Below, one piece after another: positions 1 through 41,568 of a stretch of DNA of 64,000 bases (position 1 is its first letter; each line of letters opens with the position of its first letter). Location of the stretch: the NCBI GenBank assembly GCA_017618175.1, contig JAFZUT010000018.1:29759-93758 (forward strand). Direction: 5' to 3'. The position numbers were made by a program, and so were the translations under genes. The notes below the pieces were generated by a model, which was not told the DNA's origin, did no database searches, and saw nothing but the letters and a program-made list of their open reading frames with translations. The stretch comes from Alphaproteobacteria bacterium. GTDB lineage: Bacteria; Pseudomonadota; Alphaproteobacteria; Rs-D84.

Positions 1-1
1 G

Positions 2-334
2 GCGGATGTGTGGACATTGGAAAAAACCGGTGTGTTTAATGGTCGGTATCATATCTTGGGTGGTTTGTTGTCGGGTGTTGCCGGTATCACGCCCGGGGAT
101 TTGAACATAGGGAATTTACCGCAACGCATAATTGATGAAAAAATAAATGAAATAATTTTTGCTTTGCCAAATACCGTCGAAGGCAAAACGACCCAGCAGT
201 ATATTATCTCAACATTAACGAACGCGAATGTTAAATTTACAGAATTGGCGTCCGGCGTACCGTTGGGTGGTGATTTGGATTACATAGATGACGGCACTCT
301 GTCTTTGGCATTTGGGGGGCGGCGCGCATTATGA
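2..334 (+). CDS. recR: Recombination protein RecR, C-terminal part (5' end outside window)
   Basis: ORF is open to the window start. It shows the Toprim-type RecR C-terminus (GRYHILGG, EGKTTQQYI, GVPLGGDLDYIDDGTL). Its stop overlaps the rsmA ATG. Confidence 0.85.
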   Translation, partial: ADVWTLEKTGVFNGRYHILGGLLSGVAGITPGDLNIGNLPQRIIDEKINEIIFALPNTVEGKTTQQYIISTLTNANVKFTELASGVPLGGDLDYIDDGTLSLAFGGRRAL

Positions 335-1158
335 TGGATAAATTGCAATCTTTGCCACCGGTTTCACAAATGATGCGTGATGCGGGATTAGAACCCAAAA
401 AACAATTTGGCCAGAATTTTTTGTTTGATTTGAATTTGACCGGTCGCATCGCGCGCAGTGTTCCCGATGTTGAAAATTCCACGATTATCGAGGTTGGCCC
501 GGGTCCGGGTGGCCTTTCGCGTGCATTGCTGACCGTTGGTGCGCGCAAACTGATTGCGATTGAAAAAGATAAAACCACCGAACCAATTTTATCGCAAATT
601 GTTGCGGCGGCGGCCGGGCGGTTCAACGTCATTTACGATGATGCGTTGCGCGTAGATATGAAAAAAATTGCGGGTGGAAAATTTTCCATCTGTGCGAATT
701 TGCCGTACAATGTCGGCACAGAATTATTGATAAATTGGTTGCATGATATTGCGCGTGGTGTGCCGATAACATCTATGACGTTGATGTTTCAACGCGAAGT
801 GGCGGAACGCATTGTCGCACGCAAGGCGGACGCGCAATACGGACGATTAAGTGTGTTGACCGCTTTGGTTGCAGATGCAAAAATTTTGTTTGGTGTTCCA
901 TCGACCGCATTTGTTCCGCGCCCGCGCGTTGAAAGTGCGGTTGTGCAAATTATTCCAAATGCAACCAAGATAAAAAATATTGATGATATTGGCGCGTTGG
1001 AAAACCTTACGGCGCGATTGTTTGGAATGCGGCGTAAAATGATACGCGGAATAATGCGTGATGTTGATTGGGCATATTTTGGTTTGACCGGAACCGAACG
1101 TGCCGAAGATTTAACGCCGGAAAAATTTTTAGAAATTTCTAAAAAACTGGTTGCATAG
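331..1158 (+). CDS. rsmA: 16S rRNA (adenine1518/1519-N6)-dimethyltransferase
   Basis: 275-aa ORF with the KsgA/Dim1 N-terminus (FGQNFL) and the SAM-binding motif EVGPGPGGLS. Confidence 0.93.
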   Translation: MMDKLQSLPPVSQMMRDAGLEPKKQFGQNFLFDLNLTGRIARSVPDVENSTIIEVGPGPGGLSRALLTVGARKLIAIEKDKTTEPILSQIVAAAAGRFNVIYDDALRVDMKKIAGGKFSICANLPYNVGTELLINWLHDIARGVPITSMTLMFQREVAERIVARKADAQYGRLSVLTALVADAKILFGVPSTAFVPRPRVESAVVQIIPNATKIKNIDDIGALENLTARLFGMRRKMIRGIMRDVDWAYFGLTGTERAEDLTPEKFLEISKKLVA

Positions 1159-1208
1159 GTTACATATTTTTTTGCTATAATAACCCTGAGTTATTTTAGG
1201 GGAGAGAG

Positions 1209-8553: not shown

Positions 8554-8577
8554 AATGACCCACCGTATTTTTGCGTA

Positions 8578-10131: not shown

Positions 10132-10158
10132 ATTTCCTTTCCCTTTTGCCTTTCATAT

Positions 10159-10818
10159 TTACTGTTTATACACCGTATCCAGTGGATCTCCACCACCTTC
10201 GACCGTATACCGCGAAACTTTGACCCCCAATGGGTTGTTCAAACGTTCCGCCCATTTAATTTGTGCATCATCCGTCATAGTAATTCCAATCAGGATTGTA
10301 TAATCTTTTTTGTCGGTTTGTCCATTATTATCTGAGCAATAATATTCAAATTTTACCGTGTATTGGTTGTCGCGTAATTGCATTGGCCGACCGCGGAAAT
10401 TCACGACACAGTTAAATGCAACATCGGGATAATCACTCATAATCGCCTGGTACAGTCCCGTTTTCTGGAACGCTTTGTATACATCTGGTGTGGACCATGC
10501 GGCAACGACGCCGTTGCTGCTACCCCATTTTTGCCGCATTATCGACATATTTTGTTCAATCTCATTGCGCGCACGCACATATTCCATAACAAATGCCTGG
10601 CGATAAGCCTCAAGATTTTCGTCATTTGGTGGCAATTCAGTAATTTGAATAACCGATGCACCTTCGGGTTTTGACGTTATAAAGAACACTTCCGGCCGGT
10701 TCAGCGGAAACATTTTTTCCAATGTCATAAACATTACAAACAACACAACCACGCACCCGGCGAACACAAAAACAAGCAATCTTGATAATAAAACCGGCGG
10801 TTCTATGCGGTTTTGCAC
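10159..10818 (-). CDS. virB8: VirB8-like type IV secretion inner-membrane protein
   Basis: 219 aa, single N-terminal TM, then a VirB8-type periplasmic domain (AFVMEYVRARNEIE ... NNPLGVKVSRYTVE, compare the canonical NPLGFxVTSYR ending). Confidence 0.75.
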   Translation of the reverse strand: MQNRIEPPVLLSRLLVFVFAGCVVVLFVMFMTLEKMFPLNRPEVFFITSKPEGASVIQITELPPNDENLEAYRQAFVMEYVRARNEIEQNMSIMRQKWGSSNGVVAAWSTPDVYKAFQKTGLYQAIMSDYPDVAFNCVVNFRGRPMQLRDNQYTVKFEYYCSDNNGQTDKKDYTILIGITMTDDAQIKWAERLNNPLGVKVSRYTVEGGGDPLDTVYKQ

Positions 10819-10947: not shown

Positions 10948-10978
10948 CCGCGCCATCACAATTTTTGTGATGGCGCGG
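10948..10978 (-). terminator. Strong hairpin terminator after the 199-aa secreted-protein gene
   Basis: CCGCGCCATCACAA-TTT-TTGTGATGGCGCGG perfect inverted repeat, about 25 nt downstream of the stop at 11004. Confidence 0.65.
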
Positions 10979-11003: not shown

Positions 11004-11603
11004 TTACGTTAACGGCGTATAGCACTTATTATTGCCGCACGCGCCACTGCAACAAGATTCGTTTTCGCTGCAATATTCGCCATCAACTTTACAATTACTT
11101 GCCTTGCCGCTTGGACGGCTGCTGTCGAATCCATCGGGTCCATAAACGATGCGTCCATGCAAGTTCCACAATAAACAATTACCGGATTCATCCGCGTCAA
11201 AACAATTTGCATAAACGGCGGTTGTTTCCGTCATTTCCGGCAAATTGTCCACCGTACTGGATATTTCATCCATCTCGTTATATAAATCATCCATAGCCGG
11301 AACAATATCACCCGCGGTCACCAGGTCCCCTTCGTGGCCTGAGACAACACCGCCGTTTTCATCGTCATAGCCTGTTTCAAAATCAAAAATCCCACGTTCA
11401 CCGATTACACCGTTACCGGTCGTTGTATATGTGACAACGGTTTCACCGGGGGTTGATGCGTTTGTTCCCGCCGCAGGTATTTTATTTTGTTTCAATGCAT
11501 CTTGGGCATCTACATAATCTTTGGATGTAACCGTGGAACTTGTTGCAAATGCGTTTAATGCTAAAACGGATGCGATTGCACCAATGAATAATGCCTGTCT
11601 CAT
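11004..11603 (-). CDS. Secreted protein (199 aa) with DYVD...KQxKI N-terminal motif, NCLLWNL motif and knottin-pattern Cys tail
   Basis: The ORF track starts at 11768, but the ATG at 11603 has RBS AAAGGGAGG and yields a signal peptide (MRQALFIGAIASVLALNAFA). Paralogous to 25848..26360. C-terminus is CKVDGEYCSENESCCSGACGNNKC. Confidence 0.75.
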   Translation of the reverse strand: MRQALFIGAIASVLALNAFATSSTVTSKDYVDAQDALKQNKIPAAGTNASTPGETVVTYTTTGNGVIGERGIFDFETGYDDENGGVVSGHEGDLVTAGDIVPAMDDLYNEMDEISSTVDNLPEMTETTAVYANCFDADESGNCLLWNLHGRIVYGPDGFDSSRPSGKASNCKVDGEYCSENESCCSGACGNNKCYTPLT

Positions 11604-11757
11604 AATATTCCTCCCTTTTTCCTTGTCGTCATCCCGATATAAATCGGGATCCCTTCTTTTTTCCTGATTTATAGTGTAACAAAAAGGTACCTTTTTTGTG
11701 ACCAGGTACCTTATTTTGTAAGTAATTGATTTTACTGAATCGCATTTTCTAAAAAAA

Positions 11758-25524: not shown

Positions 25525-25558
25525 TTATTGTCGTATTTGGTATTTTTATAAAAAACGC

Positions 25559-25588
25559 TTGCATTAAAAATCATATTTTTGATAAAAT
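25559..25588 (+). promoter_or_regulatory. Candidate extended -10 promoter for the 170-aa secreted-protein gene
   Basis: TTGCAT, an 18-nt spacer, then TGATAAAAT (TGn + TAAAAT). Confidence 0.35.
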
Positions 25589-25594
25589 TACAGT

Positions 25595-25847
25595 TGAATC
25601 GAATGGGAATTCGTTTCGGGACCTTCAAAAGTCCATATTTCCCGGTGCCTGATGGACATCGTAATTCCGCGATAATTCCGTTTTTTGGCACCGAAAGAAT
25701 TATCCCCGACCGAGTGCGGTTCGGGGTGCCGGCGAAATATACAACAGGCATTGCCGAAATTCGTCGGGATCGTTGGAAATATGATTTTTGAACACCCCGA
25801 CCGTCATTTCCATTGACGGTTATTTATTTGAAACAAAGAGGGGAAAT
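25595..25847 (+). promoter_or_regulatory. Long (~250 nt) structured 5' leader
   Basis: Nested pairings: GGCACC...GGTGCC encloses CCCCGACC-GAGTGC-GGTTCGGGG. Also GAATCGAATGGGAATTCGTTTC, plus hairpin ACCGTCA-TTTCCAT-TGACGGT just before the RBS. Confidence 0.3.
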
Positions 25848-26360
25848 ATGAGTAAAGTTTTATTATTCGGGCTAATCGCATCGGTTTTAACAATCAACGC
25901 ATTTGCCGATCCGGTCACAATCACGACCCAAGATTATGTTGATACCACGGTCGCCACCAAACAAGATAAAATATCCGCCCATGGTACGGTTAGTATTGGA
26001 AACGTTTCTGCCTATGGGCTTCCTGATTCTGTTATAACCGACACCGATACAGACGGTGTTGTCGCAAAACGGGTTATTATGTATGGTGCCGGTCCGTGGT
26101 ACGTTACAACCGACTATATGGGCAATGCTCTTAAACAAGGCGTACTTTTGACGCAAAACTCGATTAAGAGTATGGCGAACACTATGGGGTACAGTGACGA
26201 TGATTTGGACAAGGCATTGGTTTCCGCCGGTGTGATAAATGATGCCTTTCGTAAAACGAACGAGACAATATTAAATAGACAACTTAAAAAAGTCTGTGTT
26301 CAATGGATTGAAAATGTGGCCGAAACCGATGCAAATTGTTTGTTGTGGAATTTACCGTAA
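25848..26360 (+). CDS. Secreted protein (170 aa), paralogue of 11004..11603 (DYVD...KQDKI and NCLLWNL motifs)
   Basis: An internal ATG with RBS AGAGGGG gives the signal peptide MSKVLLFGLIASVLTINAFA. Shares TxDYVDxxxAxKQxKI and the C-terminal NCLLWNL with the 199-aa protein. Confidence 0.75.
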   Translation: MSKVLLFGLIASVLTINAFADPVTITTQDYVDTTVATKQDKISAHGTVSIGNVSAYGLPDSVITDTDTDGVVAKRVIMYGAGPWYVTTDYMGNALKQGVLLTQNSIKSMANTMGYSDDDLDKALVSAGVINDAFRKTNETILNRQLKKVCVQWIENVAETDANCLLWNLP

Positions 26361-26380
26361 ATAGCAAATTTCTTATAAAA

Positions 26381-26406
26381 ACACCGGCGGGAAACCGCCG
26401 ATGTTT
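26381..26406 (+). terminator. Rho-independent terminator
   Basis: CGGCGG-GAAA-CCGCCG hairpin followed by a T-run. Confidence 0.65.
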
Positions 26407-26463
26407 TTACCATCGCCCACTTTCGCGCGTTGCACTTCGGTGGACAGGGCCTGACGAAAGTGA

Positions 26464-26604
26464 CCGTCATCCCGTGCTTTTTCTTCGTCATCCCGGCGAA
26501 TGCCGGGATCTCTTCGTTATCAGGTGAGACTGAAAAGATACCGCCCTATATCACCCACAAAAATGCAGCTCATTTTTGCGGGACCCGATGTGGCGGTATG
26601 ACGG
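26464..26604. repeat. MITE-like nested palindromic repeat, copy 1 (~140 bp)
   Basis: Termini CCGTCATCCCGTG ... GGCGGTATGACGG. Internal modules GTCATCCCGGCGAATGCCGGGATCTCTTCG and CACCCACAAAAATGCAGCTCATTTTTGCGGGACCCGA are shared with 33695..33834. Confidence 0.8.
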
Positions 26605-26633
26605 TGTTATGATAATTACTAATACAAAAATAC

Positions 26634-26657
26634 ATATCGGCGGTTACCCGCCGATAT
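26634..26657 (-). terminator. Terminator of the 111-aa minus-strand gene
   Basis: ATATCGGCGG-GTAA-CCGCCGATAT followed by a T-rich tract on the minus strand. Confidence 0.6.
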
Positions 26658-26706
26658 GCTCTCCTTCCTTCCGGAAACCGGAAACTGTTTGTTTGTGTGT
26701 AAAAAA

Positions 26707-27042
26707 TTATGCCGCCATTGCCACGGTGTTTTCAGATTTGCCTTCTTCGGCGTCCATAATCCGCTTGGCTTCGGCAAAGACCATTTCTTTCACACGCAAC
26801 GCCAATTCTTTCGTGTCCAGCGATTCCGCCGCAACATCGAAATTATCGGTACGAATTTGCAATGAAACATAGGCGCCGACCAAAGAAGTGCGTGGCAAAT
26901 CTTCGATTGAACGTGGCGCGTTGTTGTGACCGATTTGCAATTCATCGCTAAGCGATATTATCTGTCGGTCGGCATTGACCCACACGGTTGTGCTTAACAC
27001 TTTGTGCAGGGCAATCATGATTTCTTTGATGTTTTTTGGCAT
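26707..27042 (-). CDS. Hypothetical protein (111 aa)
   Basis: Strong RBS (AGGAGGGA), its own terminator, no signal peptide, no family recognised. Confidence 0.6.
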   Translation of the reverse strand: MPKNIKEIMIALHKVLSTTVWVNADRQIISLSDELQIGHNNAPRSIEDLPRTSLVGAYVSLQIRTDNFDVAAESLDTKELALRVKEMVFAEAKRIMDAEEGKSENTVAMAA

Positions 27043-27090
27043 GTGGCGTTCCCTCCTTTCTGGGCGTTGTCAAAAATTCAAAGCAGTTTT

Positions 27091-27113
27091 TGTATTTACA
27101 CGATGTATTTACA
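27091..27113. promoter_or_regulatory. Operator-like duplicated 10-bp palindrome
   Basis: TGTATTTACA-CGA-TGTATTTACA lies ~50-70 nt upstream of the 26707..27042 start. Each unit is TGTA-N2-TACA. Confidence 0.35.
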
Positions 27114-27302
27114 AATCACTGAATCAAATTTTTTGGTTGTTCCTTGTTTTTCCCAGAAAACCGCGTTTTCCTTAGATTTCTGGGCTTTTTTGTTTTGGTC
27201 CCTTTGTCTATACACGGATGATAGAACAAAAACGAATCGATGGTCAAGAGAAAAAATGAAAAAAATTAAAAAAAATTTTATTTTTTGAAAAAGTCTTTGC
27301 AA

Positions 27303-28886
27303 TTACACGAATTTTTCAGGGATGATTTTGGTCATTTTTTTGAATATGCGTCTAAAAATTGTTGTGTCGGGGTCACGGGTGTACACACGTGGTTTTGTAT
27401 CCCCGGTTCTGCGCCCGGTCCATATTGTTTTATCGCCGTCTGTGGTCACGTGCCAAGATGTCTGGGTGTCGCGCATAATCATATCACGCACGCGCGCCGC
27501 GAATTCTGGGCTTTCAAATATCGCTACATTTTCTGTATTGTAATATGCGCTGCGTGGGTCCAGGTTAAAACTGCCTATCCACGAAATTTTGTCATCAAAA
27601 ACAATTGTTTTACTGTGCATAACCGAAAAGCACGATGGTTTGTTCAGGTGTCTGCGCCGTCCACCGCGCAAATTTTCCGCCGACAACATAAATTCATACA
27701 CGTCCGCACCGCCATTTATTAAATCGCGCCGATAATTTTCCCATTTTCCAAAGACGGTTGGCGCATTTGTTGATGCCAAAGAATTTGTAACAATGGTTAT
27801 ATGAACGCCGGCCTTTTGTTCGTTTTGCATCAATTTCATTCCGCCAATTCCCGGCACAAAATATGCCGCAGACACATACACACTGTGTCGGGTTTCGCGC
27901 CAAAGCCGGTTTAATGCCAACATAATTTCACCACGATATCGTTCTTTGCGTTCCATCGGCATTTCGACTTTTTCCGGTGGGTCTGCAATAAATCGACCGT
28001 GTCCCCAACAAAAATCGAACAGTTTATTTTTGAATTCGTATATCACCAAAGATATAATTTTATTATATCGGCGAACGCTTTCGTTACTGGTCCGTTCTAA
28101 TTCGGCAAAATTCCGTTCAAATTTGTTCATTGCGCAACGCGATTTAGCCTTTGGAATAACGAACGCAGGTACCGCCAAGTGATGCATCCAATATTTATTA
28201 AAACTGTCCGCGGCGCCACGCGTGATTTCGCCCAAGAACAAAACGTCTGTGTCGGAAAAATTTGATGCATCATCGGGCATAAAATAATTACTGCCCACAT
28301 TGCGACCGCCGGTAATCAACGCGACATTATCAACAATGAACAGTTTATTATGCATCCGCGAATTCAACCGGTTAAAATCCATCAATATCTGGGGATAGTA
28401 CAAAATGCGCGACCGATTTTTGACGGCATTAAAGATTTTCACTTCTATATTTGGATGTTGGTTCAGTAAAATTACATCTGCGATATCGGAACGTGTGCCA
28501 TAATCGTCAATCAGTATGCGCACCTTGACCCCGCGGTCGGCGGCATTTTTAAGTTCCCCAATTAAAATTCGCGAAGAAAAATCATTACTGTAAATATATG
28601 TTTGAATGTCAATGGTTTTTGTTGCCATACGCGCAAATGCGGCGCGAATGACAAACGCAGACAGGCCGTCTTCAATCAGTGTTGCGCCACTAACATTTTT
28701 CGATTGATTTAATTCAGTTTCATATTGTTTGGCAATTGGCGTCTGCATCGGGTCATATTCCGCATCCGCTGCGACAATTTTTGGGTTATATGTTGCCAAA
28801 CGTTTGTCGCGCAAACTGGTTGGGATGGTTGTGCAACCAACAAACGGCAACGCCAATAATAACCAAGAAAAATTACTCAAAGCCAT
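27303..28886 (-). CDS. Phospholipase D-family lipoprotein (two HKD motifs; ClsC/PLD-like)
   Basis: Lipobox signal (LLLALPFVGC). HKD motifs HNKLFIVDNVALITGGRN and HSKTIVFDDKISWIGSFN. Confidence 0.85.
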   Translation of the reverse strand: MALSNFSWLLLALPFVGCTTIPTSLRDKRLATYNPKIVAADAEYDPMQTPIAKQYETELNQSKNVSGATLIEDGLSAFVIRAAFARMATKTIDIQTYIYSNDFSSRILIGELKNAADRGVKVRILIDDYGTRSDIADVILLNQHPNIEVKIFNAVKNRSRILYYPQILMDFNRLNSRMHNKLFIVDNVALITGGRNVGSNYFMPDDASNFSDTDVLFLGEITRGAADSFNKYWMHHLAVPAFVIPKAKSRCAMNKFERNFAELERTSNESVRRYNKIISLVIYEFKNKLFDFCWGHGRFIADPPEKVEMPMERKERYRGEIMLALNRLWRETRHSVYVSAAYFVPGIGGMKLMQNEQKAGVHITIVTNSLASTNAPTVFGKWENYRRDLINGGADVYEFMLSAENLRGGRRRHLNKPSCFSVMHSKTIVFDDKISWIGSFNLDPRSAYYNTENVAIFESPEFAARVRDMIMRDTQTSWHVTTDGDKTIWTGRRTGDTKPRVYTRDPDTTIFRRIFKKMTKIIPEKFV

Positions 28887-28988
28887 ACGAACATTATACC
28901 GTCCCCATCACATTTAGCAAGTCAAATCAGCGTGAAAAAAATCCCAACACAGATAAAATTCATTTCATCCGTGTTTTTCACTTGCGTT

Positions 28989-29014
28989 GATAATCGTGAT
29001 AATGATAAAATAAT
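28989..29014. promoter_or_regulatory. Fur-box-like GATAAT hexamer array
   Basis: GATAAT-CGT-GATAAT-GATAAA-ATAAT lies 25-50 nt upstream of the 29039 start. GATAATGATAA matches the first 11 nt of the classical Fur consensus. Confidence 0.35.
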
Positions 29015-29038
29015 ACGGAACGGAAGGAAGATTTTACA

Positions 29039-32000
29039 ATGAAAAGACTTGCTATATTTATTGGTGGCCTGCTTGTGTTGCCCGCATTTGCTGAGGTTGC
29101 ACCTGTTTTATATGAAGATATTGAATACGCGGATGTTGTGTATGATGAATACGGCAATCCGGTGTATTACACCGATTATACGGACGCGGATTTAACCCCG
29201 GAAATGGACGAAAATGTGACGATGCCTTCTGTTCCTGCGTCACGCAGTGGATCCGCATCGCGTGCAAACACTAACCGCACAACAATCGGTCGAACGGTAC
29301 CCACAACCAATGCGGGTGCGGCCACGGGTCGTGCGTCTGCGGCAAATTCGTCACGTGTGGTGGCGGCGCGTACAACATCGAATTCTTCCCCACGTTCAAA
29401 CACCAATTCGCGCAGTGTTTCATCGCGTACAACATCAACCACGGCAACGCGCACAACAACCGATACAGATGCCACGCGGGCGGCGGCAACCCGTGCAACG
29501 GGCGGGGCGGGGCGTACCGCAACATCAACCCGCACAGGCGCATCCGGTGGTGCGACGGTGGCACGAACAACAACATCGCGTAATGCGACATCATCGCGCA
29601 CGGCAACGACCGGTGCACGTGTAAATCGTGCATCGACCAACGCGGCGGTGGGGGTGACCGGCAATGTTATATCTGCTGCGCCCATCCGGGTAACCACGGC
29701 CAGCGGCACAACAAACGCGGATTACCTTACCGACAGTGGCCAAAGATTATATAACGCAAACGGTGCACGTGTCAGTGTTGCGAACCGTGTTCCAACAATT
29801 CGTATGTCATCGGTCAGTGGCATTTCCACCGATACCACATCGGTCAGTGCGACCACCCCCGCAGAAATGGACGAATTGGCGGAATTAACCGATTATTGCA
29901 AGGCCCAATATGCGGCGTGCATGGATAATTATTGTAACGTCTTGGACGACAACCAAGGCCGTTGCAGTTGCAGTGCCAATATTAAAAATTATGCCAAGGC
30001 CGAGGCCGCATTGAAACAGGCAACCGAAGAATTGCAAGAGGTTGCACAAAAGATTCAATACATTGGTTTGTCCGCGCGCGAGGTTGAAACCCTGTTCACC
30101 CAGACCGAGGCGGAATTGAAAATGCAATCCACCACCGATACCAGTCAGTTAAAGACCAGTCTGGACAAGATAAAAGATATGATTATCGAGGTTCAATCCG
30201 GCAACGCATCATCTTCGAATTCGTCTTTCCTTTCGTTTGATTTATCGGGTCTGTTGGACTTTACTATTGACAGCACCGGTTTTGATTTATCTTCGTTCTT
30301 GGGTGGTTTTGGCACGAATTCAAACGGTATCAATAACCAACGCGGCGAAGAATTGTTCAAAACCGCAACAAATCGTTGCAAGGCGAACGTCTTAAAGGCC
30401 TGCACGGCCCAGGGTGTTGACGGTTCATTGGTTACGAACGCGTATGATTTAGAAATTGACCGCGAATGTATCGCCTATGAACGCAGCCTGAACGATTCCA
30501 ACGACCAAATGGTTGCAACGGTGCGCAACGCCAAAAGCGTTCTGCAAAAGGCGCGCCTGTTGGTGGAACAATCGAAAAACGAATACGATATGCGCGGATG
30601 CATAAACGCACTTGATTCCTGTATGCAGGATGAATACGTTTGCGGCACGGATTATGAAAAGTGCCTTGATCCGTCCGGCCGCTATATCGTGAACGGCGAA
30701 ATAGTTATTGGTACCGACCCGGGTCGCGCGGTGAATGGCATTGGAGACGCCACAAATGCCACGGGTGTGTTGGACGGCGATATATGCAGTATGAATTTGT
30801 ATAACGTTTGGAATTATGGTTCATCCACGGCGGGCCAAACAACGGCCGGTTGCAAAAACGCATGGAACAGTTACAGCCTGAACGGTTCCAACAATGGTAA
30901 TTTGGCGGATTATATAAACACAACCGTGACGGCAACTGCGGCCAAGAACGGCGGTTTGGGTATGTCTGAATTTATCCAAAACAAAATCGGTTATGTTGAT
31001 GGCGACAAAAATTATGGTATGTGCATATCGGTGCTGAATAAATGCCAAGATTACACATACACCGGCAAGGGTTCTTCGCGTAAATATAACCCCGTGAACG
31101 AGGTTGTAAAACAATACTTGGATCGTATGTTGATTCAAATCAAGGCAAAGCAAGACCAAATCTTGGCGGAACACGCGGAAAGTTGTATAACGGACGTGAC
31201 AACATGCCTGTCCCAGAACAATTATCCGTTTGATGAGGCATCAACGAACCAGGTTCAGGCGAATATCGCAATCAACGCGTGCCGTTCAACAATCGTGACA
31301 TGTATGTCGGTGAATGGTTATTCGGTTGAAAACCCGACCCCATCTGATTTATCACGTTGGATTTGTGGTATTACCACCGGCAGTGTCGATTGCATCCCAA
31401 ATTCCGGCGGCGGTTCCGGGGGGGGTGAGACAACAACCTATACAGTTACATACAATTGCAACGGTGGAACTGGGACGGCACCGGCGTCACAAACGGTTCA
31501 ATATAACACTCAATTCATGACACGTGCCAACACATGTACCAAACCGAGTGCAAGTCAAACGTTTGATGGGTGGCTTGTGGGAAGTACGTCATCTGATAGT
31601 GTTGTTTGGCTTGCAAATAGGACATATACATACAATTATCAATCTGATAAAACACTTTATGCGCGTTGGACTACGGTGACGGGTTCTTGCACTCCAACGA
31701 CACTTGGAAATTGTAACGAAACAACGTGCGGAAGTTTGGGGGGAAATTACATATGGTGTACTACCGGGTCTAGCAGACCGTCTTGTAAATTAAGAACAGA
31801 TTGTCCGGCCGCATGCAGCGCGACCAATTTGCCGGCATGCGACAGTGATGAGTGTGGGTTGTACAATGGTAATTGGTGCGCATCGGGAACAACGATTAAC
31901 TTCTCATGCAGTGATACTGCAGGTGCCTGTTGTTTGGGCAATCCAACCGGTTGCACGCGCAATCAGTGTGATGCCCTGAATTATAAATGGTGTGTCCAAA

Positions 32001-32200
32001 GAACTGGCGATACACCCAAGTGTACGAGTCAGTCATATCAAGTGGAATGTTGTGTTGGTTCTGTCGCGGGTTGCGCACGCGAGCCGGATTGTATCGCCGT
32101 TGGTGGAACGTGGAATGGGACCAGTTGCAGTGGCAGTGGAGATGATGGTAGGTACCAATATAATACGATAGAAATTGAAGGTGCGGAAGTAAATCCATAA
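29039..32200 (+). CDS. Large secreted multidomain Cys-rich protein (1053 aa)
   Basis: Signal peptide (LLVLPAFAEV). Arg/Ser/Thr/Ala-rich low-complexity region at about aa 66-215. Long helical region with six C-x6-7-C motifs. One Listeria-Bacteroides (InlB B-repeat) type domain at aa 800-878 (YTVTYNCNGGTG...FDGW...TLYARW). Four tandem 4-Cys modules at aa 884-1030. Confidence 0.8.
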   Translation: MKRLAIFIGGLLVLPAFAEVAPVLYEDIEYADVVYDEYGNPVYYTDYTDADLTPEMDENVTMPSVPASRSGSASRANTNRTTIGRTVPTTNAGAATGRASAANSSRVVAARTTSNSSPRSNTNSRSVSSRTTSTTATRTTTDTDATRAAATRATGGAGRTATSTRTGASGGATVARTTTSRNATSSRTATTGARVNRASTNAAVGVTGNVISAAPIRVTTASGTTNADYLTDSGQRLYNANGARVSVANRVPTIRMSSVSGISTDTTSVSATTPAEMDELAELTDYCKAQYAACMDNYCNVLDDNQGRCSCSANIKNYAKAEAALKQATEELQEVAQKIQYIGLSAREVETLFTQTEAELKMQSTTDTSQLKTSLDKIKDMIIEVQSGNASSSNSSFLSFDLSGLLDFTIDSTGFDLSSFLGGFGTNSNGINNQRGEELFKTATNRCKANVLKACTAQGVDGSLVTNAYDLEIDRECIAYERSLNDSNDQMVATVRNAKSVLQKARLLVEQSKNEYDMRGCINALDSCMQDEYVCGTDYEKCLDPSGRYIVNGEIVIGTDPGRAVNGIGDATNATGVLDGDICSMNLYNVWNYGSSTAGQTTAGCKNAWNSYSLNGSNNGNLADYINTTVTATAAKNGGLGMSEFIQNKIGYVDGDKNYGMCISVLNKCQDYTYTGKGSSRKYNPVNEVVKQYLDRMLIQIKAKQDQILAEHAESCITDVTTCLSQNNYPFDEASTNQVQANIAINACRSTIVTCMSVNGYSVENPTPSDLSRWICGITTGSVDCIPNSGGGSGGGETTTYTVTYNCNGGTGTAPASQTVQYNTQFMTRANTCTKPSASQTFDGWLVGSTSSDSVVWLANRTYTYNYQSDKTLYARWTTVTGSCTPTTLGNCNETTCGSLGGNYIWCTTGSSRPSCKLRTDCPAACSATNLPACDSDECGLYNGNWCASGTTINFSCSDTAGACCLGNPTGCTRNQCDALNYKWCVQRTGDTPKCTSQSYQVECCVGSVAGCAREPDCIAVGGTWNGTSCSGSGDDGRYQYNTIEIEGAEVNP

Positions 32201-32221
32201 AATATTACGAGGGATGATAAT

Positions 32222-33658
32222 ATGAAGAAATTTTTGACATGTGCGTTATGTTTTATGCCGTCTATTGCCGGTGCGGTGACTTTGTATTACACTCCGGGCC
32301 GTGAATGTCCCGGTTTGTACTTGAATTCTGCTGAAATCGGTTGCCCGGCGGATTCCCTGCGTGTGACACAATTAAATGTGACATCCCGTGCAGACGCAGA
32401 TTTTACTGGATATAATGTTGGCAATGTTGAAATTGTAGATTCCACCGGCAATATTAAATCAAACGCGGTTGAAACATTGGCCGCCGCAGCCGCAGCCGGC
32501 AATACTGTTTCCAAAGTCACCGGAAATTACGAATGCCAAACCGGCGCCCGGGAAAACAGCAACGGTGTGTGTGTCAATGCACTGTCTTTGGACACATCCA
32601 CATCTGAAAATATCGCATATATTGATTGGGAATCTTTGGTGAATAACACAAATCTTGATTCTGGTTACGAAATAGATCCCAATCAAATAAAAGATGATGG
32701 CGGCAAAGGCTGCTATTACGACAGGGATTTCGATATAGTGATTCATTGGTGCCCAAAAAATTATTCCGCAATTGATTATTCATATGGTGGTGCACATATT
32801 GCATACGGAAATAATCCCGTTGATTGGTCCGCTTTGCCATGCAATCAATCGACCGAGACATATCATTATCATTGGAACGGGGGAACATCTCTTGGAACAT
32901 ATACCAAAAATGGTGTTACACAAACTGAACTGGTGTTTCCATCTGCACTGGGTTGGTCTCCGCGCGGTTTGTATATTGTGGGTTATCCGGAATTCAAACC
33001 GAACGACAGTTCGTTTAATAACATTCCGTATTATTCGTTGCTTAAAACAATTGCAGATAATTTGGTGACAGAACAAAGTACGACGTGGGGACGTGCACGT
33101 TTGGGTTTACCTTTTAATCAGGCAAATGTCACCGATAGAATAATATTAAACAACACTGTGAATGGTTATGGCGACGCAAATGCAAATTGGCAGATTTGGA
33201 CGTGCCGTGGCGATGTGCAAACTGTTCATATGTATGCGGCATGGGCGCGTGATTGTGCCCCAGGTGATAGCAGCGCAACATGCACACGTCAAATTCAACG
33301 TCATGGTTTATCAAATCCGGACAAAGGCGACACCATGTATTACACATCGTGCACCAGTGGCACGCTTTCCGGCGATGGCACATATAACCCGTCTTGCGGC
33401 GAATGTTCGGCGACAAATTTAGGTCAATGTAGTAAAAAAGACTGCGTATTTTCGAACGCACATTGGTGTGTGGTTGGTGGTACGGAACAATGTGTGGCCC
33501 AAGGCGCATCCGCCAGAAGTTGTTGCGTTGACGATTTTACCGGCTGTGACAGCAAGGGTTGCGGCCTGATGGGTGGCACATGGGATGACACGACATTGAC
33601 ATGTACAGGCAATGACGGTGATGGTGACACCGGAGACGAAAGTCAAGAGGGTGCATAA
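32222..33658 (+). CDS. Secreted Cys-rich protein (478 aa) sharing the C-terminal 4-Cys module
   Basis: Starts 21 nt after the previous gene with RBS GAGGGA. Signal peptide present. The C-terminus carries two copies of the same module (CSATNLGQCSKKDCVFSNAHWCVVGGTEQC, CCVDDFTGCDSKGCGLMGGTWDDTTLTC) and an acidic tail. Confidence 0.8.
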   Translation: MKKFLTCALCFMPSIAGAVTLYYTPGRECPGLYLNSAEIGCPADSLRVTQLNVTSRADADFTGYNVGNVEIVDSTGNIKSNAVETLAAAAAAGNTVSKVTGNYECQTGARENSNGVCVNALSLDTSTSENIAYIDWESLVNNTNLDSGYEIDPNQIKDDGGKGCYYDRDFDIVIHWCPKNYSAIDYSYGGAHIAYGNNPVDWSALPCNQSTETYHYHWNGGTSLGTYTKNGVTQTELVFPSALGWSPRGLYIVGYPEFKPNDSSFNNIPYYSLLKTIADNLVTEQSTTWGRARLGLPFNQANVTDRIILNNTVNGYGDANANWQIWTCRGDVQTVHMYAAWARDCAPGDSSATCTRQIQRHGLSNPDKGDTMYYTSCTSGTLSGDGTYNPSCGECSATNLGQCSKKDCVFSNAHWCVVGGTEQCVAQGASARSCCVDDFTGCDSKGCGLMGGTWDDTTLTCTGNDGDGDTGDESQEGA

Positions 33659-33664
33659 AAAATT

Positions 33665-33690
33665 AAAAACGGGTGTTGCCCCGTTTTTTT
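33665..33690 (+). terminator. Terminator after the two-gene Cys-rich operon
   Basis: A-run, short CGGG...CCCG hairpin, then T7. Confidence 0.5.
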
Positions 33691-33694
33691 ATAT

Positions 33695-33834
33695 CGTCAT
33701 CCCGGCGCAAGAACCCGTCATACCGCCGAAAGGCGGTATCTCTTCAGTATCGCCTAATAACGAAGAGATCCCGTGTCAAAGTCACCCACAAAAATGCAAC
33801 GCATTTTTGCGGGACCCGACGCACGGGATGACGG
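33695..33834. repeat. MITE-like nested palindromic repeat, copy 2 (~140 bp)
   Basis: The right module CACCCACAAAAATGCAACGCATTTTTGCGGGACCCGA has the same orientation as copy 1. The central ~42-nt module (GGCGGTATCTCTTCAG...CGAAGAGATCCCG) is the reverse complement of the copy-1 module. Terminus CACGGGATGACGG complements the copy-1 left terminus. Confidence 0.8.
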
Positions 33835-33841
33835 AATAAAT

Positions 33842-34177
33842 TTAATGATGTGCGATTATATGTGCCGCAATCCCGGCGATTGTTAAAACCGTGATGATTA
33901 TCAAAATAATCTTTTGCGTGTGGTGGTGGTGTGTTTCGCCACAGTGTTCGCAATCACATTCTTGATTATGAAAATACAAAATCCACGACAGCGCCAACAT
34001 TACCCCGGAAAATATAAACAACCATATTTCCGCGCGTTCGGGAATAATTTTATGGTCGGCAAAATCCGGTGCCACCATACCAATAATACCCAACACCACC
34101 GGCAATACACAGCAAAACAGGTGCGGTAATATGCCCGCCAAAATTCCAATACCAATCGCATGATTTTTTTTCTTCAT
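33842..34177 (-). CDS. Small membrane protein with CC and CxCxxC/His-rich motifs (putative metal-binding or transport)
   Basis: 111 aa, 3-4 TM. Motifs HLFCCVLP (as in MerT/MerC-type transporters) and ECDCEHCGETHHHH. Confidence 0.55.
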   Translation of the reverse strand: MKKKNHAIGIGILAGILPHLFCCVLPVVLGIIGMVAPDFADHKIIPERAEIWLFIFSGVMLALSWILYFHNQECDCEHCGETHHHHTQKIILIIITVLTIAGIAAHIIAHH

Positions 34178-34196
34178 CTTATCACCATTTTTTTCT

Positions 34197-34272
34197 TGGT
34201 ATCCCCAGCCGGAATCGAACCAGCATCTAATTCTTAGGAGGAACTTGTTCTATCCAATTGAACTATGGGGAC
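34197..34272 (-). tRNA. tRNA-Arg (anticodon CCT)
   Basis: 76-nt cloverleaf folded by hand. Anticodon loop CTCCTAA, T-loop TTCGATT, encoded CCA. Confidence 0.88.
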
Positions 34273-34364
34273 ACGATGCGCATTTATTTTAACCCCAGAT
34301 TTTGATATTGCAAGTTATATTAAAACCTGTATAATACCAAGGCACGAAAATATAAGGAATTTAT

Positions 34365-35303
34365 ATGGGAAACAAACTTGTTGGATACGGTTCTTATTTG
34401 CCGGCGCGCGTGATGACCAATGCTGATTTTGAACGCGTGATGGATACAACCGACCAATGGATTGTCGAACGCACAGGAATTCATTCTCGGCAATTTGCGG
34501 CCGCCGATGAAACGGTTGCCGATATGGCGGCAAATGCGGCGCGCGCGGCGTTGAAAAATGCGAATTTGACAATTGATGATATTGATATGGTAATTGTCGC
34601 AACGACTACGCCGGAATTGGATTTCCCATCTGTCGCGGTTCAAGTGACCGGTATGTTGGGCGCAACGAAAAATATGCCTGCGTTCGATGTGCGTGGCGCG
34701 TGCACCGGGTTTATATATGCGTTGCATTGCGCGCGCGGGTTCTTTGCGGCGGGCATACACGAACGCATAATGGTTGTTGGCGCAGAAAAAATGTCGCGAT
34801 TTATCGATATGACCGACCGTTCAACGGCTGTTCTGTTTGGTGATGGCGCGGGCGCGTTGATTTTTGAACGTTCCACGTCCAGTTATTCTGGGATAATTGA
34901 TACCGTCGTTATGGCGGACGGGAAAAAGTTTGAAATGCTGCACGGGTCACCGGACCACAAAATTATTATGAATGGACCAGAAACATATAAAATGGCGGTG
35001 TCACTGATGCCGGACGCCGCGCGATATATTATGGAACACGCCGGAATCACCCAAGATGATATAGACTGGATTGTGCCGCACCAGGCGAACATTCGTATAA
35101 TTCAATCGTGCGCGGCGCGCCTTGGGTTTCCAATGGAAAAGATTTTAATAACTGTTGACCGGCACGCGAATACGTCCGGTGCATCAGGCGCATTGGCGTT
35201 GGCGTACGCGTTCGATAATAAAATAATAAAACACGGACAATTGGTTTTGTATCCTGCGTTCGGCAGTGGCCTGACCTGGGGTGCGACACTTATAAGAGTA
35301 TAA
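34365..35303 (+). CDS. fabH: 3-oxoacyl-ACP synthase III
   Basis: 312 aa. Active-site region ACTGFIYAL and HQANIRI motif. Confidence 0.95.
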   Translation: MGNKLVGYGSYLPARVMTNADFERVMDTTDQWIVERTGIHSRQFAAADETVADMAANAARAALKNANLTIDDIDMVIVATTTPELDFPSVAVQVTGMLGATKNMPAFDVRGACTGFIYALHCARGFFAAGIHERIMVVGAEKMSRFIDMTDRSTAVLFGDGAGALIFERSTSSYSGIIDTVVMADGKKFEMLHGSPDHKIIMNGPETYKMAVSLMPDAARYIMEHAGITQDDIDWIVPHQANIRIIQSCAARLGFPMEKILITVDRHANTSGASGALALAYAFDNKIIKHGQLVLYPAFGSGLTWGATLIRV

Positions 35304-40014: not shown

Positions 40015-41568
40015 ATGAGAAAGGCGTTAGTTTCGTTTTTGCCGGCAATTTTACTTCATTTTGTGGCCGTTGGGTCAAATGAAGGGGTGCCGGTTTATTA
40101 TCAAAAAGACAAGGCCGCAACATCTAATCAGTTAAATTATGGCGAATACGCGGACAAAGGATATACCAAATACGTCGGTACATCTGGTTCCAAACAGGTG
40201 GTCGGCACACGAACATACACATATCGTAATGAACGCACAAAAACCCAGGATATCCCAACATATATCGATGGTATGACATATACAAATTCTGGGGCGATGA
40301 CGGTGAACGGTGTTGCGACATCAATGGAACTTGAACGCAGAACACACATTTATGCCGGATATTCGCGGCGGTTTGCAGACTTTGAATTTCAAACGGGTGT
40401 AAATTCTATTCTTGAATGGGATGATATGGTTTTTAACGAGGTCAATGTTGGTGCCCGTCATGTATTTTCTTTGCACAATTTTGATTTGTTTGCGTTTGGT
40501 GAATACACATATGGCGATATGTCCCACGGTGGGCTGTCTATGGATTATGATTTGGAACCGTATGATTGGAATACGCCGAACGATGGAATTTTCACTATAT
40601 CTATGGGTGACCAATCCGGGCGTTCGCATCATTTGCGTTTCGGCATTGGGGCGCACCACGTGTGGGATATCGGCGGGTGGAAATTTTCACCGGTTATCGG
40701 TTATGAAATTTTCAAGCACGATTTGAAAATGTCCGATCACCTGTATCCTAACCAGGGTGTATACCTGCCATTGATGACCAGTGGTGGCGAATATGTATAT
40801 GGTGATGCCGAAGGAAACTATTTTTCTATGCCGACCAATGTCACACCACCCGATAATTGGTACCAGGTTTGTATGGGCCCCGAAGATATGCGTGTCGTGA
40901 ACCAATCCACCGGCAGCGCGATTGGTGGGTACGTGACGGGTTATGGAAACTTGTTGACCACGATGGAATATGACCCAAGTTGGGGTATTGTGCCGTGGGG
41001 CGTACCCGAAGGTGATTGCGTTATCATCGGTGGTGACGGCCCGATTAAGGTTGGTGGTGTGACGCACATTTACAACACAACGTGGAGTGGTTTCTATTTC
41101 GGGTTAGAGGTGGAAAAGCAAATGACGCTTGCGGATAAATTGCGTTTCTATTTCCAGGTCGGTTTGCCCAAGTATTCATCCGAAGGCATTTGGCCGAACC
41201 GTACCGATTGGCAACAAAGCCCAAGTTTCTTGGACGAAGGCAGCAACGGATCGTATTCTTATGCCGCGGAAATGGAATATGACCTGCGGTTGTCATCGCG
41301 TTTGCAATTGGCGTTAAAGGTTGACACAAATCTGTTCCATGTGGGCAAGATTCCGGGAAAACTGTATATTGCCGAATACACAGATTTCGTGTATGACGAA
41401 AATGGTCAATTGGTGGTATATGAAGGTATAGATCCAATAACGGGCGAAACGGTTCTGTATCCAGAATTAAATCAGGTTGCCGCCCATACCGAACACATCA
41501 GCAATTCTTTGAAACAGGCAACCTGGCAATCATTTGGATTGCACATAGGATTTAAATACGCATTTTAA
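40015..41568 (+). CDS. Outer-membrane beta-barrel protein (517 aa)
   Basis: Hydrophobic N-terminus, alternating beta-strand pattern rich in Tyr/Gly, aromatic C-terminus ...GFKYAF. Confidence 0.6.
   Translation: MRKALVSFLPAILLHFVAVGSNEGVPVYYQKDKAATSNQLNYGEYADKGYTKYVGTSGSKQVVGTRTYTYRNERTKTQDIPTYIDGMTYTNSGAMTVNGVATSMELERRTHIYAGYSRRFADFEFQTGVNSILEWDDMVFNEVNVGARHVFSLHNFDLFAFGEYTYGDMSHGGLSMDYDLEPYDWNTPNDGIFTISMGDQSGRSHHLRFGIGAHHVWDIGGWKFSPVIGYEIFKHDLKMSDHLYPNQGVYLPLMTSGGEYVYGDAEGNYFSMPTNVTPPDNWYQVCMGPEDMRVVNQSTGSAIGGYVTGYGNLLTTMEYDPSWGIVPWGVPEGDCVIIGGDGPIKVGGVTHIYNTTWSGFYFGLEVEKQMTLADKLRFYFQVGLPKYSSEGIWPNRTDWQQSPSFLDEGSNGSYSYAAEMEYDLRLSSRLQLALKVDTNLFHVGKIPGKLYIAEYTDFVYDENGQLVVYEGIDPITGETVLYPELNQVAAHTEHISNSLKQATWQSFGLHIGFKYAF

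Follow-up and report, generated by a model that had tools for sequence, protein, structure and literature searches.

The two small genes studied here, A and B, are paralogous members of an as yet undescribed family of at least 664 sequence clusters, seen so far only in genome-reduced gut Alphaproteobacteria of the order Rs-D84 (Ca. Enterousia-like MAGs with genomes of about 0.9 Mb). The family has a four-part build: the signal peptide comes first, then a conserved base (about 50 residues), a variable helical centre and a two-cysteine hairpin cap. The cysteine-rich tails that follow the cap in most of its members are swapped among otherwise similar scaffolds. We tentatively read these proteins as stalks, on the cell surface or outside the cell, whose tips vary and which work in the manner of the MAT fibres of Bdellovibrio, and give this reading a substantial chance that falls somewhat short of even.

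Bacteria of the Rs-D84 / Ca. Enterousia group are common inhabitants of guts, those of livestock among them, and much of glycolysis is missing from them. The TCA cycle, respiration and standard transporters are also absent from Rs-D84, and a partner-dependent lifestyle has been proposed (PMC12306168). With its predicted export, purifying selection, shared candidate promoter cassette and exchange of tips, the family is a concrete candidate for an interface with partner cells. We know of no account of how Rs-D84 / Ca. Enterousia bacteria contact such cells.

Two paralogues and their family

Both open reading frames were confirmed in the 64 kb stretch of DNA that was analysed (hereafter the window; Table 1). 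Each begins with an ATG preceded by a Shine-Dalgarno sequence, GAGGGG ahead of position 25848 for A and GGGAGG ahead of position 11603 for B, and the resulting lengths of 170 and 199 aa are those of the database proteins P0001 (97% to A) and P0033 (99% to B). In BLASTP, A residues 1-169 align with B residues 1-148 over 175 columns at 33% identity (E 7e-15); the alignment spans nearly the whole proteins, so the similarity is not limited to the signal peptide, and the paralogy proposed in an earlier sequence-only reading of this DNA holds. The shared motifs named there are likewise present in both proteins, namely a signal-peptide end SVL(T/A)(I/L)NAFA just before the predicted cleavage site, a near-identical mature N-terminus (I/V)T(T/S)(Q/K)DYVD-x3-A-x-KQ(D/N)KI-x-A-x-GT and a C-proximal (D/S)(A/G)NCLLWNL. 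Two points had been missed: B runs 51 residues beyond NCLLWNL into a six-cysteine tail, and the C motif marks the second of two cysteines in a conserved hairpin loop. Searches with a profile HMM and with tblastn detected only A and B in the window, with no third copy (family-HMM E-values 9e-52 for A and 1e-73 for B). Weak tblastn matches in virB10 and in an outer-membrane beta-barrel ORF (52652..53758) were lost in the HMM search.

Table 1. Positions of genes A and B, their parts and neighbouring elements in the window; gene coordinates include the stop codon and residues are numbered in the respective protein.
Feature	Position	Strand	Basis or remark
Gene A, tail-less family member	25848..26360	+	ORF, start codon, 32 word-indexed homologues
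A signal peptide, Sec-type, residues 1-20	25848..25907	+	read from sequence; cleavage between AFA and D predicted by rule
A N motif TITTQDYVDTTVATKQDKISAHGT, residues 24-47	25917..25988	+	Y30, V31, D32, Q39, I42 invariant
A beta-hairpin DSVITDTDTDGVVAKRVIM, residues 60-78	26025..26081	+	T64, T66, T68, G70, R75 at least 90% conserved
A C-terminal cap QLKKVCVQWIENVAETDANCLLWNLP, residues 145-170	26280..26357	+	two-cysteine hairpin, C150 and C164
Leader element AACACCCCGACCGTC and hairpin	25791..25821	+	about 27 nt 5' of A start codon
Intrinsic-terminator-like hairpin CGGCGGGAAACCGCCG and T-run	26385..26408	+	3' of A
Gene B, knottin-like tail	11004..11603	-	ORF, start codon, 163 word-indexed homologues
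B signal peptide, residues 1-20	11544..11603	-	read from sequence; predicted cleavage between AFA and T
B conserved base TVTSKDYVDAQDALKQNKIPAAGTNASTPGETVVTYTTTGNGVIGERGI, residues 24-72	11388..11534	-	lowest-entropy stretch of family
B amphipathic helix, residues 97-120	11244..11315	-	conserved 4-3-4-3 hydrophobic spacing
B cap, long beta-hairpin with C134..C143 loop and NCLLWNL, residues 124-156	11136..11234	-	AF2, conservation
B Cys-rich tail C-x6-C-x5-CC-x3-C-x4-C, residues 169-199	11007..11099	-	cysteine pattern
Palindrome AAAGGTACCTTT, candidate promoter/operator	11683..11694		conserved cassette upstream of B
Strong hairpin	10948..10978	-	directly past B stop codon, before virB8; read from sequence
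virB8 (10159..10818), virB9/CagX (8578..10131), virB10/TrbI (6139..8553)	6139..10818	-	Pfam; downstream of B

The earlier reading could not assign the family, and neither could our searches of Pfam, NCBIfam, PHROGs, PDB sequences and folds and phage collections. Pfam, NCBIfam and PHROGs returned nothing beyond sub-threshold noise for A, B, six long relatives and a Spiroplasma repeat protein (among the PHROGs, A fell below threshold to phrog_5207 at E 0.0065, and P0231 was marginal). Foldseek gave no usable match for the B model against PDB and BFVD or for the A model against PDB (best E 0.26 to 2.8), and PDB sequence searches with the family profile, P0250, P0231 and P0174 matched in the Cys-rich tail alone. 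At E<=1e-3 an exhaustive profile search recovered 664 cluster representatives of the family itself, and at E<=1e-10 it recovered 402. Family genes are dispersed along the genome: the 0.91 Mb assembly RUG585 gave 16 profile hits, equal to about a dozen genes or more, and RGIG3338 has a minimum of 8 copies. These copy numbers are lower bounds, since the scan was built on a 15-sequence alignment and detects B-type N motifs only. In a genome of this kind, more than 1% of all genes belong to the family.

Across 109 relatives (B numbering), Y30, V31, D32, Q39, C143 and L145 are invariant, while T24, T26, I42, V56, T58, T60, G65, R70, I72, L94 and C134 (the last at 99%) are conserved in at least 90%. 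Entropy is low at residues 1-72 and 134-148, with residues 73-133 and the tail variable. The base has the consensus TVTSKDYVD-x5-KQNKI followed by the hairpin TVVTYT.T.G.IGERGI. Both A and B show the hallmarks of this 'YVD-CLLW' family: a signal peptide ending AxA (rule-based check), the N motif T.T..(D/N)YVD-x5-KQ.KI, the hairpin (S/T)V(V/I)T.T.T.G..(G/A).R.I and the cap C-x8-13-NC(L/I/T)LW.L (C150 and C164 in A, C134 and C143 in B).

The signal peptide of A is made up of an n-region MSK, an h-region VLLFGLIASVLTI and a c-region NAFA, the final A20 being 98% conserved in the family. In its AF2 monomer model (pTM 0.53) the core resembles a small and compact alpha/beta domain; confidence is low in the N motif, the base hairpin has strands at 61-65 and 72-78, and the cap has strands at 149-153 and 164-168 (pLDDT about 90). 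Cap residues Q145, C150, T160, N163, C164, L165, L166 and W167 are at least 90% conserved, and the two cysteines presumably pair in a disulfide. The B signal peptide has no lipobox, NAFA being followed by TSS and the first cysteine being residue 134. The B monomer is extended and non-globular as a whole (pTM 0.42), with confident local elements: a base hairpin (strands 55-59 and 67-72), an amphipathic helix at 97-119 (pLDDT >90) and a long cap hairpin (strands 124-137 and 143-156, pLDDT up to 97). Column hydrophobicity along the helix peaks at 100, 104, 107, 111, 114 and 121, a heptad-like spacing that is compatible with a trimer and no proof of one.

Most members are short, at 160 to 250 aa. 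Long relatives repeat the central module, as in P0174 (9 matched stretches in 1004 aa), P0250 (10 in 2278 aa), P0231 and P0277. All four start with the YVD motif, and all except P0277 finish with the CxLW cap, which a tail may or may not follow. The YVD..KQ motif also recurs as a repeat within a large repetitive Spiroplasma protein.

Exchangeable tails under a conserved base

A ends at the cap, and 70 of the 284 members analysed have no tail, whereas in B and most relatives a conserved xDKxVYG linker leads into a tail that is hypervariable and disulfide-rich. The sequence-only reading had placed the variability between conserved ends; the centre does diverge, but the most variable and exchangeable part is the Cys-rich tail past the C motif. 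Exchange is seen in 21 protein pairs whose centres are at least 65% identical and whose tails, with differing cysteine patterns, are less than 35% identical. Pairwise comparison gave no case of the converse.

The fold classes of the tails are assigned by sequence profile. The B tail is knottin-like by this measure: its spacings of 6, 5, 0, 3 and 4 follow the knottin pattern C-x3-7-C-x3-8-C-x0-7-C-x1-4-C-x4-13-C, and a profile of 15 B-like tails (B included) retrieved mostly solved knottin-type peptides at E 5e-4 to 1e-2. Weak Pfam matches to conotoxin and UPF0506 were also found, and AF2 confidence in the B tail is 52 to 71. The commonest class, 56 of the 104 six-cysteine tails, has a terminal C-x-C and is absent from both A, which is tail-less, and B, which has the knottin pattern. 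It aligns with the chickpea nodule peptide NCR13 (E 7.9e-8), with five of six cysteines as invariant alignment columns and matching DC and NG.C.C motifs, and more weakly with scorpion alpha-KTx toxins and bacterial xanthusin-1; its C2-C3 spacing is mostly 4 to 8 residues, so that the canonical CxxxC is mostly missing. The apparent likeness to NCR13 may reflect either common descent or convergence.

Among A-type orthologues dN/dS is below 1 in all regions, at 0.3 to 0.43 in the centre and 0.1 to 0.35 at the ends; the contrast between centre and termini that the sequence-only reading had suggested comparing is thus present as a somewhat more relaxed centre, yet one still under purifying selection. 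Positive selection on the A centre was considered and dropped, these pairwise values giving no sign of it. The N-terminal regions of RUG585 paralogues stay conserved at dS 0.5 to 1.7, which, with the low dN/dS, indicates that the base is kept by protein-level selection, and such divergence within one genome excludes recent gene conversion. Terminal segments of A orthologues show a mosaic dS, with the C motif at dS = 0 between loci L038 and L040 and the remainder at 0.6 to 0.9, which suggests occasional recombination.

Genomic setting and competing readings

The genes appear to be complete units. Start codon and signal peptide are present in seven RUG585 copies, most examined family genes share a conserved upstream cassette and a Shine-Dalgarno sequence, and the AAAGGTACCTTT palindrome accompanies the family gene in 20 of the 41 fetched loci, upstream of it in all but two, where it falls slightly within the called start. 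A search for transcripts turned up no usable RNA run that contains the sequence. The leader AACACCCCGACCGTC also stands ahead of A-type genes in L011, L030 and L038-L041. A had been described as opening a plsX-fabH island; in fact it comes after plsX (which ends at 25524), within an insert of about 8.8 kb that parts this gene from fabH (34365..35303), and its orthologues are syntenic, following plsX in L038-L041. Genes downstream of family members comprise virB8, HIT, thrS, an AI-2E transporter, an unannotated 111-aa ORF and, in L040 and L041, another family member. No adjacent immunity gene or recurrent small partner gene was seen at these loci.

If the proteins are stalks with variable tips, Sec export would be followed by assembly into short stalks or fibres beyond the periplasm. 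The invariant base would dock to a common envelope partner or nucleate oligomerisation, and the distal variable end, either the cap loop or the Cys-rich tip, would bind surfaces or targets on other cells, which the tips probably contact. A small-genome organism would thereby gain a repertoire of contact specificities. The giant repeat shaft of the long relatives favours a stalk or fibre over a pro-peptide. The earlier suggestion of a common export or anchoring mechanism carrying variable ligand regions survives in part, since the conserved N-terminus and variable distal parts fit it, although the key variability is not central. Four observations run against the stalk reading: no route across the outer membrane was found, the compact A core need not be a fibre, neither sequence nor fold resembles phage fibres or solved MAT fragments, and the toxin- or antimicrobial-like tails suit a released peptide equally well.

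Release of the tail is the alternative that fares best, although we consider it unlikely. The signal and scaffold would then be a pro-region from which the Cys-rich tail is cut and released as a toxin-like or antimicrobial peptide, as in conotoxin and NCR precursors. A conserved signal and N-terminal region ahead of a hypervariable Cys-rich C-terminus would fit such a precursor, as would the conserved linker and the tail profiles that match solved knottin toxins and NCR13, an antifungal and membrane-permeabilising peptide (PMC11637438). Tail-less members such as A would have to be decoys, chaperones or degenerate copies, yet they are well conserved and under purifying selection, and a pro-region in members that reach 1000 to 2278 aa would be extravagantly long. 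In the AF2 model of B, moreover, the VYG linker belongs to the cap hairpin, which makes it structural rather than an exposed cleavage loop, and no processing protease, immunity or exporter gene is consistently adjacent.

Rather less probable is that these bacteria have a venom- or NCR-like system of their own, in which one conserved Sec-exported scaffold would display or release a repertoire of swappable mini-domains and at least the virB8-linked member would exit the periplasm through VirB8-10 in a Ptl-like manner. If true, knottin-type and defensin/NCR-type mini-domains would serve for attachment to partner cells, for their permeabilisation or for their manipulation.

Slightly lower again we place a tie to type IV secretion, in which B, and perhaps the whole family, would be a component or Sec-dependent substrate of a VirB8-VirB9-VirB10 machine, perhaps a surface adaptor in the manner of VirB5 or VirB7, perhaps periplasmic cargo exported as pertussis toxin is by Ptl. 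A member does lie directly upstream of virB8-virB9-virB10 in the window and in RUG585 and related rumen contigs (P0040, the syntenic orthologue of B), and a 294-aa member holds the same position in a Ca. Enterousia MAG. VirB8/9/10 are 78 to 93% identical across these genomes; the member ahead of them either reaches only about 48% identity or belongs to another subtype, as expected of an exposed, fast-evolving partner, and the VirB10 homologue also terminates in a Cys-rich extension. The co-occurrence with VirB8-10 that the sequence-only reading had raised is nevertheless confined to one conserved slot in three genomes: VirB8/9/10 homologues are found in 5 of the 41 fetched loci, all at this slot and in the same gene order (L001-L004, L019), and the other loci have none, the five of them with called-gene tables lying among housekeeping genes. 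Because synteny is generally kept in these genomes, as it is for A after plsX, adjacency of B and virB8 is weak evidence, and the link of the family to type IV secretion genes is purely positional. B also has its own upstream cassette and the strong hairpin past its stop codon (missed by the terminator scan because it has no clean T-run), and virB8 has a promoter-like site of its own, read from the sequence and not called by the scan. The missing lipobox means that B is not VirB7-like, B has neither a fold match nor a Pfam match to the VirB2, VirB5 or VirB7 families, and the window holds no T4SS ATPase gene.

An origin as phage tail-fibre remnants, or recombinational antigenic variation with silent cassettes copied into an expression site through conserved ends, is very improbable and both were rejected: the Spiroplasma repeat, the several contigs that break within family genes and the mosaic dS of A orthologues could be taken that way, but there were no hits by tblastn in 50,697 GenBank phage records, in the IMG/VR scan or, above threshold, in PHROGs beyond the marginal one of P0231, the neighbours are housekeeping genes, and the checked copies are not promoterless cassettes but complete genes with their own start codons and, in most examined, the shared upstream cassette. 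The N-termini of paralogues also differ within a genome at the dS given above.

Comparison with known systems

Knottin, NCR and defensin modules are familiar chiefly from the venoms of animals and the nodules of legumes. In this family, modules like these occur in a new setting, at the C-terminal end of modular proteins made by bacteria, which is relevant to how the knottin and NCR/defensin folds arose and spread. The tails may also be regarded as a natural library of small, stable domains that would act in binding.

Among bacterial systems, trimeric autotransporter adhesins differ in their C-terminal YadA-type anchor, as neither YadA_anchor nor autotransporter Pfam domains were found in A, B or the long relatives. 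B resembles VirB7 as a small, exported (by prediction), cysteine-containing protein in the classical virB7 slot directly upstream of virB8, but is unlike VirB7, VirB5 and VirB2 in having no lipobox, Pfam or fold match, and its paralogues are scattered away from T4SS genes. Polymorphic toxins and contact-dependent effector families share the conserved N-terminal part, the exchangeable C-terminal modules and the many paralogues; here, in contrast, there is no adjacent immunity gene, the tails are disulfide-rich and of 30 to 90 residues rather than enzymatic toxin domains, and export would rely on a Sec signal, no T5, T6 or T7 system being linked.

At the level of the tails, B resembles omega-conotoxins, omega-atracotoxin-Hv1a and wrightide R1 in cysteine spacing and profile match (best E 5e-4), although its module forms the last 30 residues of a bacterial protein of 199 aa, whereas knottins are free animal or plant precursor peptides. 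The commonest tail class is similarly close to NCR13 and the CS-alpha/beta (cis-defensin-like) peptides by profile, but its tails are fused to a scaffold and differ in the C2-C3 spacing.

The closest parallel for the whole architecture is with the MAT fibres of Bdellovibrio bacteriovorus, which occur in 21 copies. Their signal peptide is followed directly by a conserved domain, their tips vary, and swapping of these tips has been proposed (PMC10769870). The two families differ in that no sequence or fold likeness to the solved C-terminal MAT fragments in the PDB was found, the base has about 50 residues here and about 130, beta-rich, in MAT, an S74 peptidase/chaperone domain has no Pfam match in A, B or six long relatives, most members here have only 160 to 250 aa, and the tips are tiny disulfide-rich domains rather than the lectin, beta-sandwich or beta-helix tips of MAT. 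What they have in common are many copies per genome, variable and exchangeable C-terminal tips, a Sec signal peptide followed at once by an invariant N-terminal domain (thought to be surface-located in MAT), a modular shaft of variable length and a bearer whose way of life involves contact with other cells, which for Rs-D84 is a proposal.

A large family of modular exported proteins

The sequence-only reading had singled out two proteins, A and B, as paralogues sharing N- and C-terminal motifs around diverged middles, and had proposed a common export or anchoring mechanism carrying variable ligand regions. The observation is confirmed and the interpretation is borne out in part: both reading frames exist where they had been placed, all three motifs quoted are present in A and B, and the resemblance goes well beyond a common signal peptide, as the BLASTP alignment covers A and B from one end to the other (33% identity, E 7e-15). 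Profile HMM and tblastn searches revealed no third copy in the 64-kb window.

Coordinates of features in the window
Feature	Position	Strand	Remarks
VirB10/TrbI homologue	6139..8553	-	804 aa; C-terminal extension of about 200 residues with cysteine-rich end (..CDGGAAPDANGCCPGETYTDMGDQGFNCCPDAGGDCFPPIEL)
VirB9/CagX homologue	8578..10131	-	SPOR domain at C-terminus
B	11004..11603	-	199 aa; GGGAGG Shine-Dalgarno
Palindrome AAAGGTACCTTT	11683..11694		perfect, 12 bp; upstream of B
plsX-fabH insert	25525..34364		about 8.8 kb; A, small minus-strand ORF, 1053-aa secreted protein, 478-aa unknown ORF, tRNA-Arg
A-type leader	25791..25821		AAC(A/T)CCCCGACCGTC, hairpin, ATTTATTT, AAAGGGGAAAT, start codon; before A, also A-type genes of other genomes
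A	25848..26360	+	170 aa; GAGGGG Shine-Dalgarno; terminator-like hairpin 26385..26400
PLD / cardiolipin-synthase-like gene	27303..28886	-	in plsX-fabH insert
1053-aa protein	29039..32200	+	signal peptide, long S/T/R-rich low-complexity region, several cysteine-rich blocks
Putative outer-membrane beta-barrel protein	40015..41568	+	matches Protochlamydia outer membrane protein family Pom
Putative outer-membrane beta-barrel protein	52652..53758	+	no Pfam match; ends ..RLRLQF
A-type leader, one mismatch	60690..60704	-	before unrelated lipoprotein gene (GTG about 60649, lipobox LCAC)

The family proves to be a genuine and large one, and neither the libraries nor the literature searched describe it. 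Pfam, NCBIfam and PHROGs match neither A nor B, in line with the earlier failure to assign them, and relatives are plentiful, with 32 homologous proteins retrieved by A, 163 by B and 664 cluster representatives at E<=1e-3 (402 at E<=1e-10) in an exhaustive profile search; where a source is named, the record reads 'hypothetical protein', from 'MAG: Alphaproteobacteria bacterium'. In a scan of one genome per species, the hosts were rumen and gut MAGs, including RUG585, RGIG3338, RUG10747, RUG14636 and Candidatus Enterousia sp., and the window sequence is present in DNA runs from gut and bovine-gut metagenomes. Ca. Enterousia belongs to the order Rs-D84, for which a partner-dependent lifestyle has been proposed, and has genomes of 0.75 to 1.0 Mb without TCA cycle, respiration, flagella or standard transporters (PMC12306168). 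Counted genome-wide, the paralogues number at least 8 in RGIG3338 and roughly 12 to 16 in the 0.91-Mb RUG585 assembly, where 16 profile hits were obtained but some lie at contig ends. Contig ends cut through a family gene in 6 of 28 genome loci (L009, L010, L014, L026, L028, L029), and family genes appear to act as assembly break points, either because repeats are confused or because strains vary.

The layout emerges from alignments and from the entropy of each column across 109 members. The signal peptide is well conserved and ends in NAFA; after it come a conserved base (B residues 24-72: TVTSKDYVD-x5-KQNKIP..GTNASTPG.TVVTYT.T.G.IGERGI) in which Y30, V31, D32 and Q39 are invariant, a variable centre (residues 73-133) in which an L-V-T-A-G turn and a helix of 4-3-4-3 hydrophobic spacing persist, and a cap that contains an NC(L/I/T)LW.L strand and the two conserved cysteines C134 and C143. 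AF2 models the hairpin, the helix and the long cap hairpin with pLDDT above 90, and predicts the N motif and the tail poorly. A-type proteins (70 of the 284 compared) end directly after the cap (..NCLLWNLP(D)); B-type proteins continue with a conserved xDKxVYG linker, which is part of the cap hairpin in the AF2 model, and then a tail, which is 30 to 90 residues long and contains 4 to 24 cysteines. In long relatives (430 to 2278 aa) a 'KQNKI ... hairpin ... (I/L)PT.GAV helix' module recurs, at most about ten times, and most of these proteins keep the YVD motif at the start and the cap at the end, some with a tail added and some not. A and B thus represent the smallest form of a modular protein, with a single module each.

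A large repetitive Spiroplasma protein (strain JKS002670; L031, about 1..2110, translated with genetic code 4) contains repeated TSKSYVD.QDALKQN and T.VGAINE motifs, which resemble the family N motif and helix turn. It matches the family HMM over a 38-residue stretch (E 4.7e-9), and Pfam and PHROG searches gave no informative match, so the module may, judging from this likeness, extend beyond Rs-D84.

Cysteine-rich tails and selection

Of 104 six-cysteine tails, 56 finish with C-x-C, 20 carry the CC doublet of inhibitor cystine knots and 28 show other patterns. The tail of B (C-x6-C-x5-CC-x3-C-x4-C) shares its pattern with P0040, its synteny orthologue, and a profile of 15 such tails matched mostly solved knottin-type peptides in the PDB, including Aca toxin 1 (E 5e-4), wrightide R1, omega-conotoxin SVIB and omega-atracotoxin-Hv1a. 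The major-class profile (24 tails; five of six cysteine columns invariant) matches chickpea NCR13 (E 7.9e-8), an antifungal peptide with three disulfides (PMC11637438), with aligned cysteines, and weakly matches scorpion alpha-KTx toxins and bacterial xanthusin-1. These similarities are profile resemblances between cysteine-rich sequences. They would suit a precursor from which tails are released as toxin-like peptides, the main rival to the stalk or fibre reading; against such a precursor speak the conservation of tail-less members, the existence of giant ones and the linker's structural role.

No part of these proteins changes faster, or is exchanged more readily, than the tail. In protein pairs with centres at least 60% identical, mean identity is 0.86 for the base, 0.75 for the centre and 0.48 for the tail, and in 21 pairs the centres are at least 65% identical although the tails are unrelated and differ in cysteine pattern; the opposite case was never seen. 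Purifying selection acts on all parts of the A orthologues (pairwise dN/dS 0.1 to 0.2 in the N motif, 0.3 to 0.43 in the centre, 0.12 to 0.35 in the C motif). Some of their terminal segments are mosaic, which hints at occasional recombination: when L038 is compared with L040, dS is 0 in the C motif and 0.6 to 0.9 in the rest of the gene. Across the first 72 codons of the RUG585 paralogues, dS is 0.5 to 1.7 and dN/dS roughly 0.2 to 0.4, which indicates that the base is kept by selection on the protein and not by recent gene conversion.

Genomic settings and upstream sequences

B lies directly upstream of virB8, virB9/CagX and virB10/TrbI and is oriented divergently to tRNA-Trp, nusG, rplKA and rpoBC. 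In RUG585 and related rumen contigs this slot is occupied by P0040 (48% identical to B), in a Ca. Enterousia MAG by a 294-aa, two-module, tail-less member, and VirB8/9/10 are 78 to 93% identical between genomes with an occupied slot. Adjacency to VirB8-10 therefore holds at this position, in the window and two other genomes, but not for the family, since VirB8/9/10 homologues were found in only 5 of 41 fetched loci, all five being the B slot. The window contains no T4SS genes beyond virB8/9/10, including any T4SS ATPase. From its position, the slot's occupant could possibly be linked functionally to the VirB8-10 core, as a component or as Ptl-like Sec-dependent cargo. A separate cassette lies upstream of B and a strong hairpin past its stop codon, and virB8 has a promoter-like site to itself.

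plsX and fabH adjoin in many bacteria. A follows rpmF and plsX, its orthologues P0002 and P0004 are syntenic, and one related genome carries one or two extra members at this spot (L040, L041); other paralogues occur alone or as tandem pairs or triplets amid housekeeping genes. The nearby 1053-aa protein, for which only a sub-threshold Listeria-Bacteroides repeat match was found, has syntenic orthologues 61 to 79% identical and weaker relatives in two other family loci (L012, L018).

A cassette of about 130 bp recurs upstream of many copies and contains AAAGGTACCTTT, which occurs upstream of a family gene in 20 of the 41 loci (in two, just inside the called start). This palindrome could serve as a shared promoter/operator, in which case the paralogues would be co-regulated. 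A and other A-type genes have a different leader in common, AACACCCCGACCGTC plus a hairpin, which may be a common 5' leader of exported-protein genes.

A proposed role as exported stalks with exchangeable tips

A phage origin and cassette-type antigenic variation were both tested and not supported. We infer that the proteins may best be read as exported stalks or fibres, given the modular, repeatable shaft, the base constant across hundreds of divergent members, the exchangeable tips, the many copies in a tiny genome and what may be shared regulation. Docking to a common envelope partner, or nucleation of assembly, would fall to the invariant base, and contact with other cells to the variable distal ends. 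The family is mechanistically suggestive.

An invariant base with variable contacting ends is how the mosaic adhesive trimer (MAT) fibres of Bdellovibrio are thought to work (PMC10769870). The family, however, has no S74 domain, a much shorter base and no sequence or fold similarity to solved MAT fragments, so that its inclusion in that superfamily is unsupported. We rate it as a known type of system, in which many copies of a surface or secreted protein keep one conserved base and exchange their tips. Its unusual feature is that knottin-like and NCR/defensin-like mini-domains serve as those tips.
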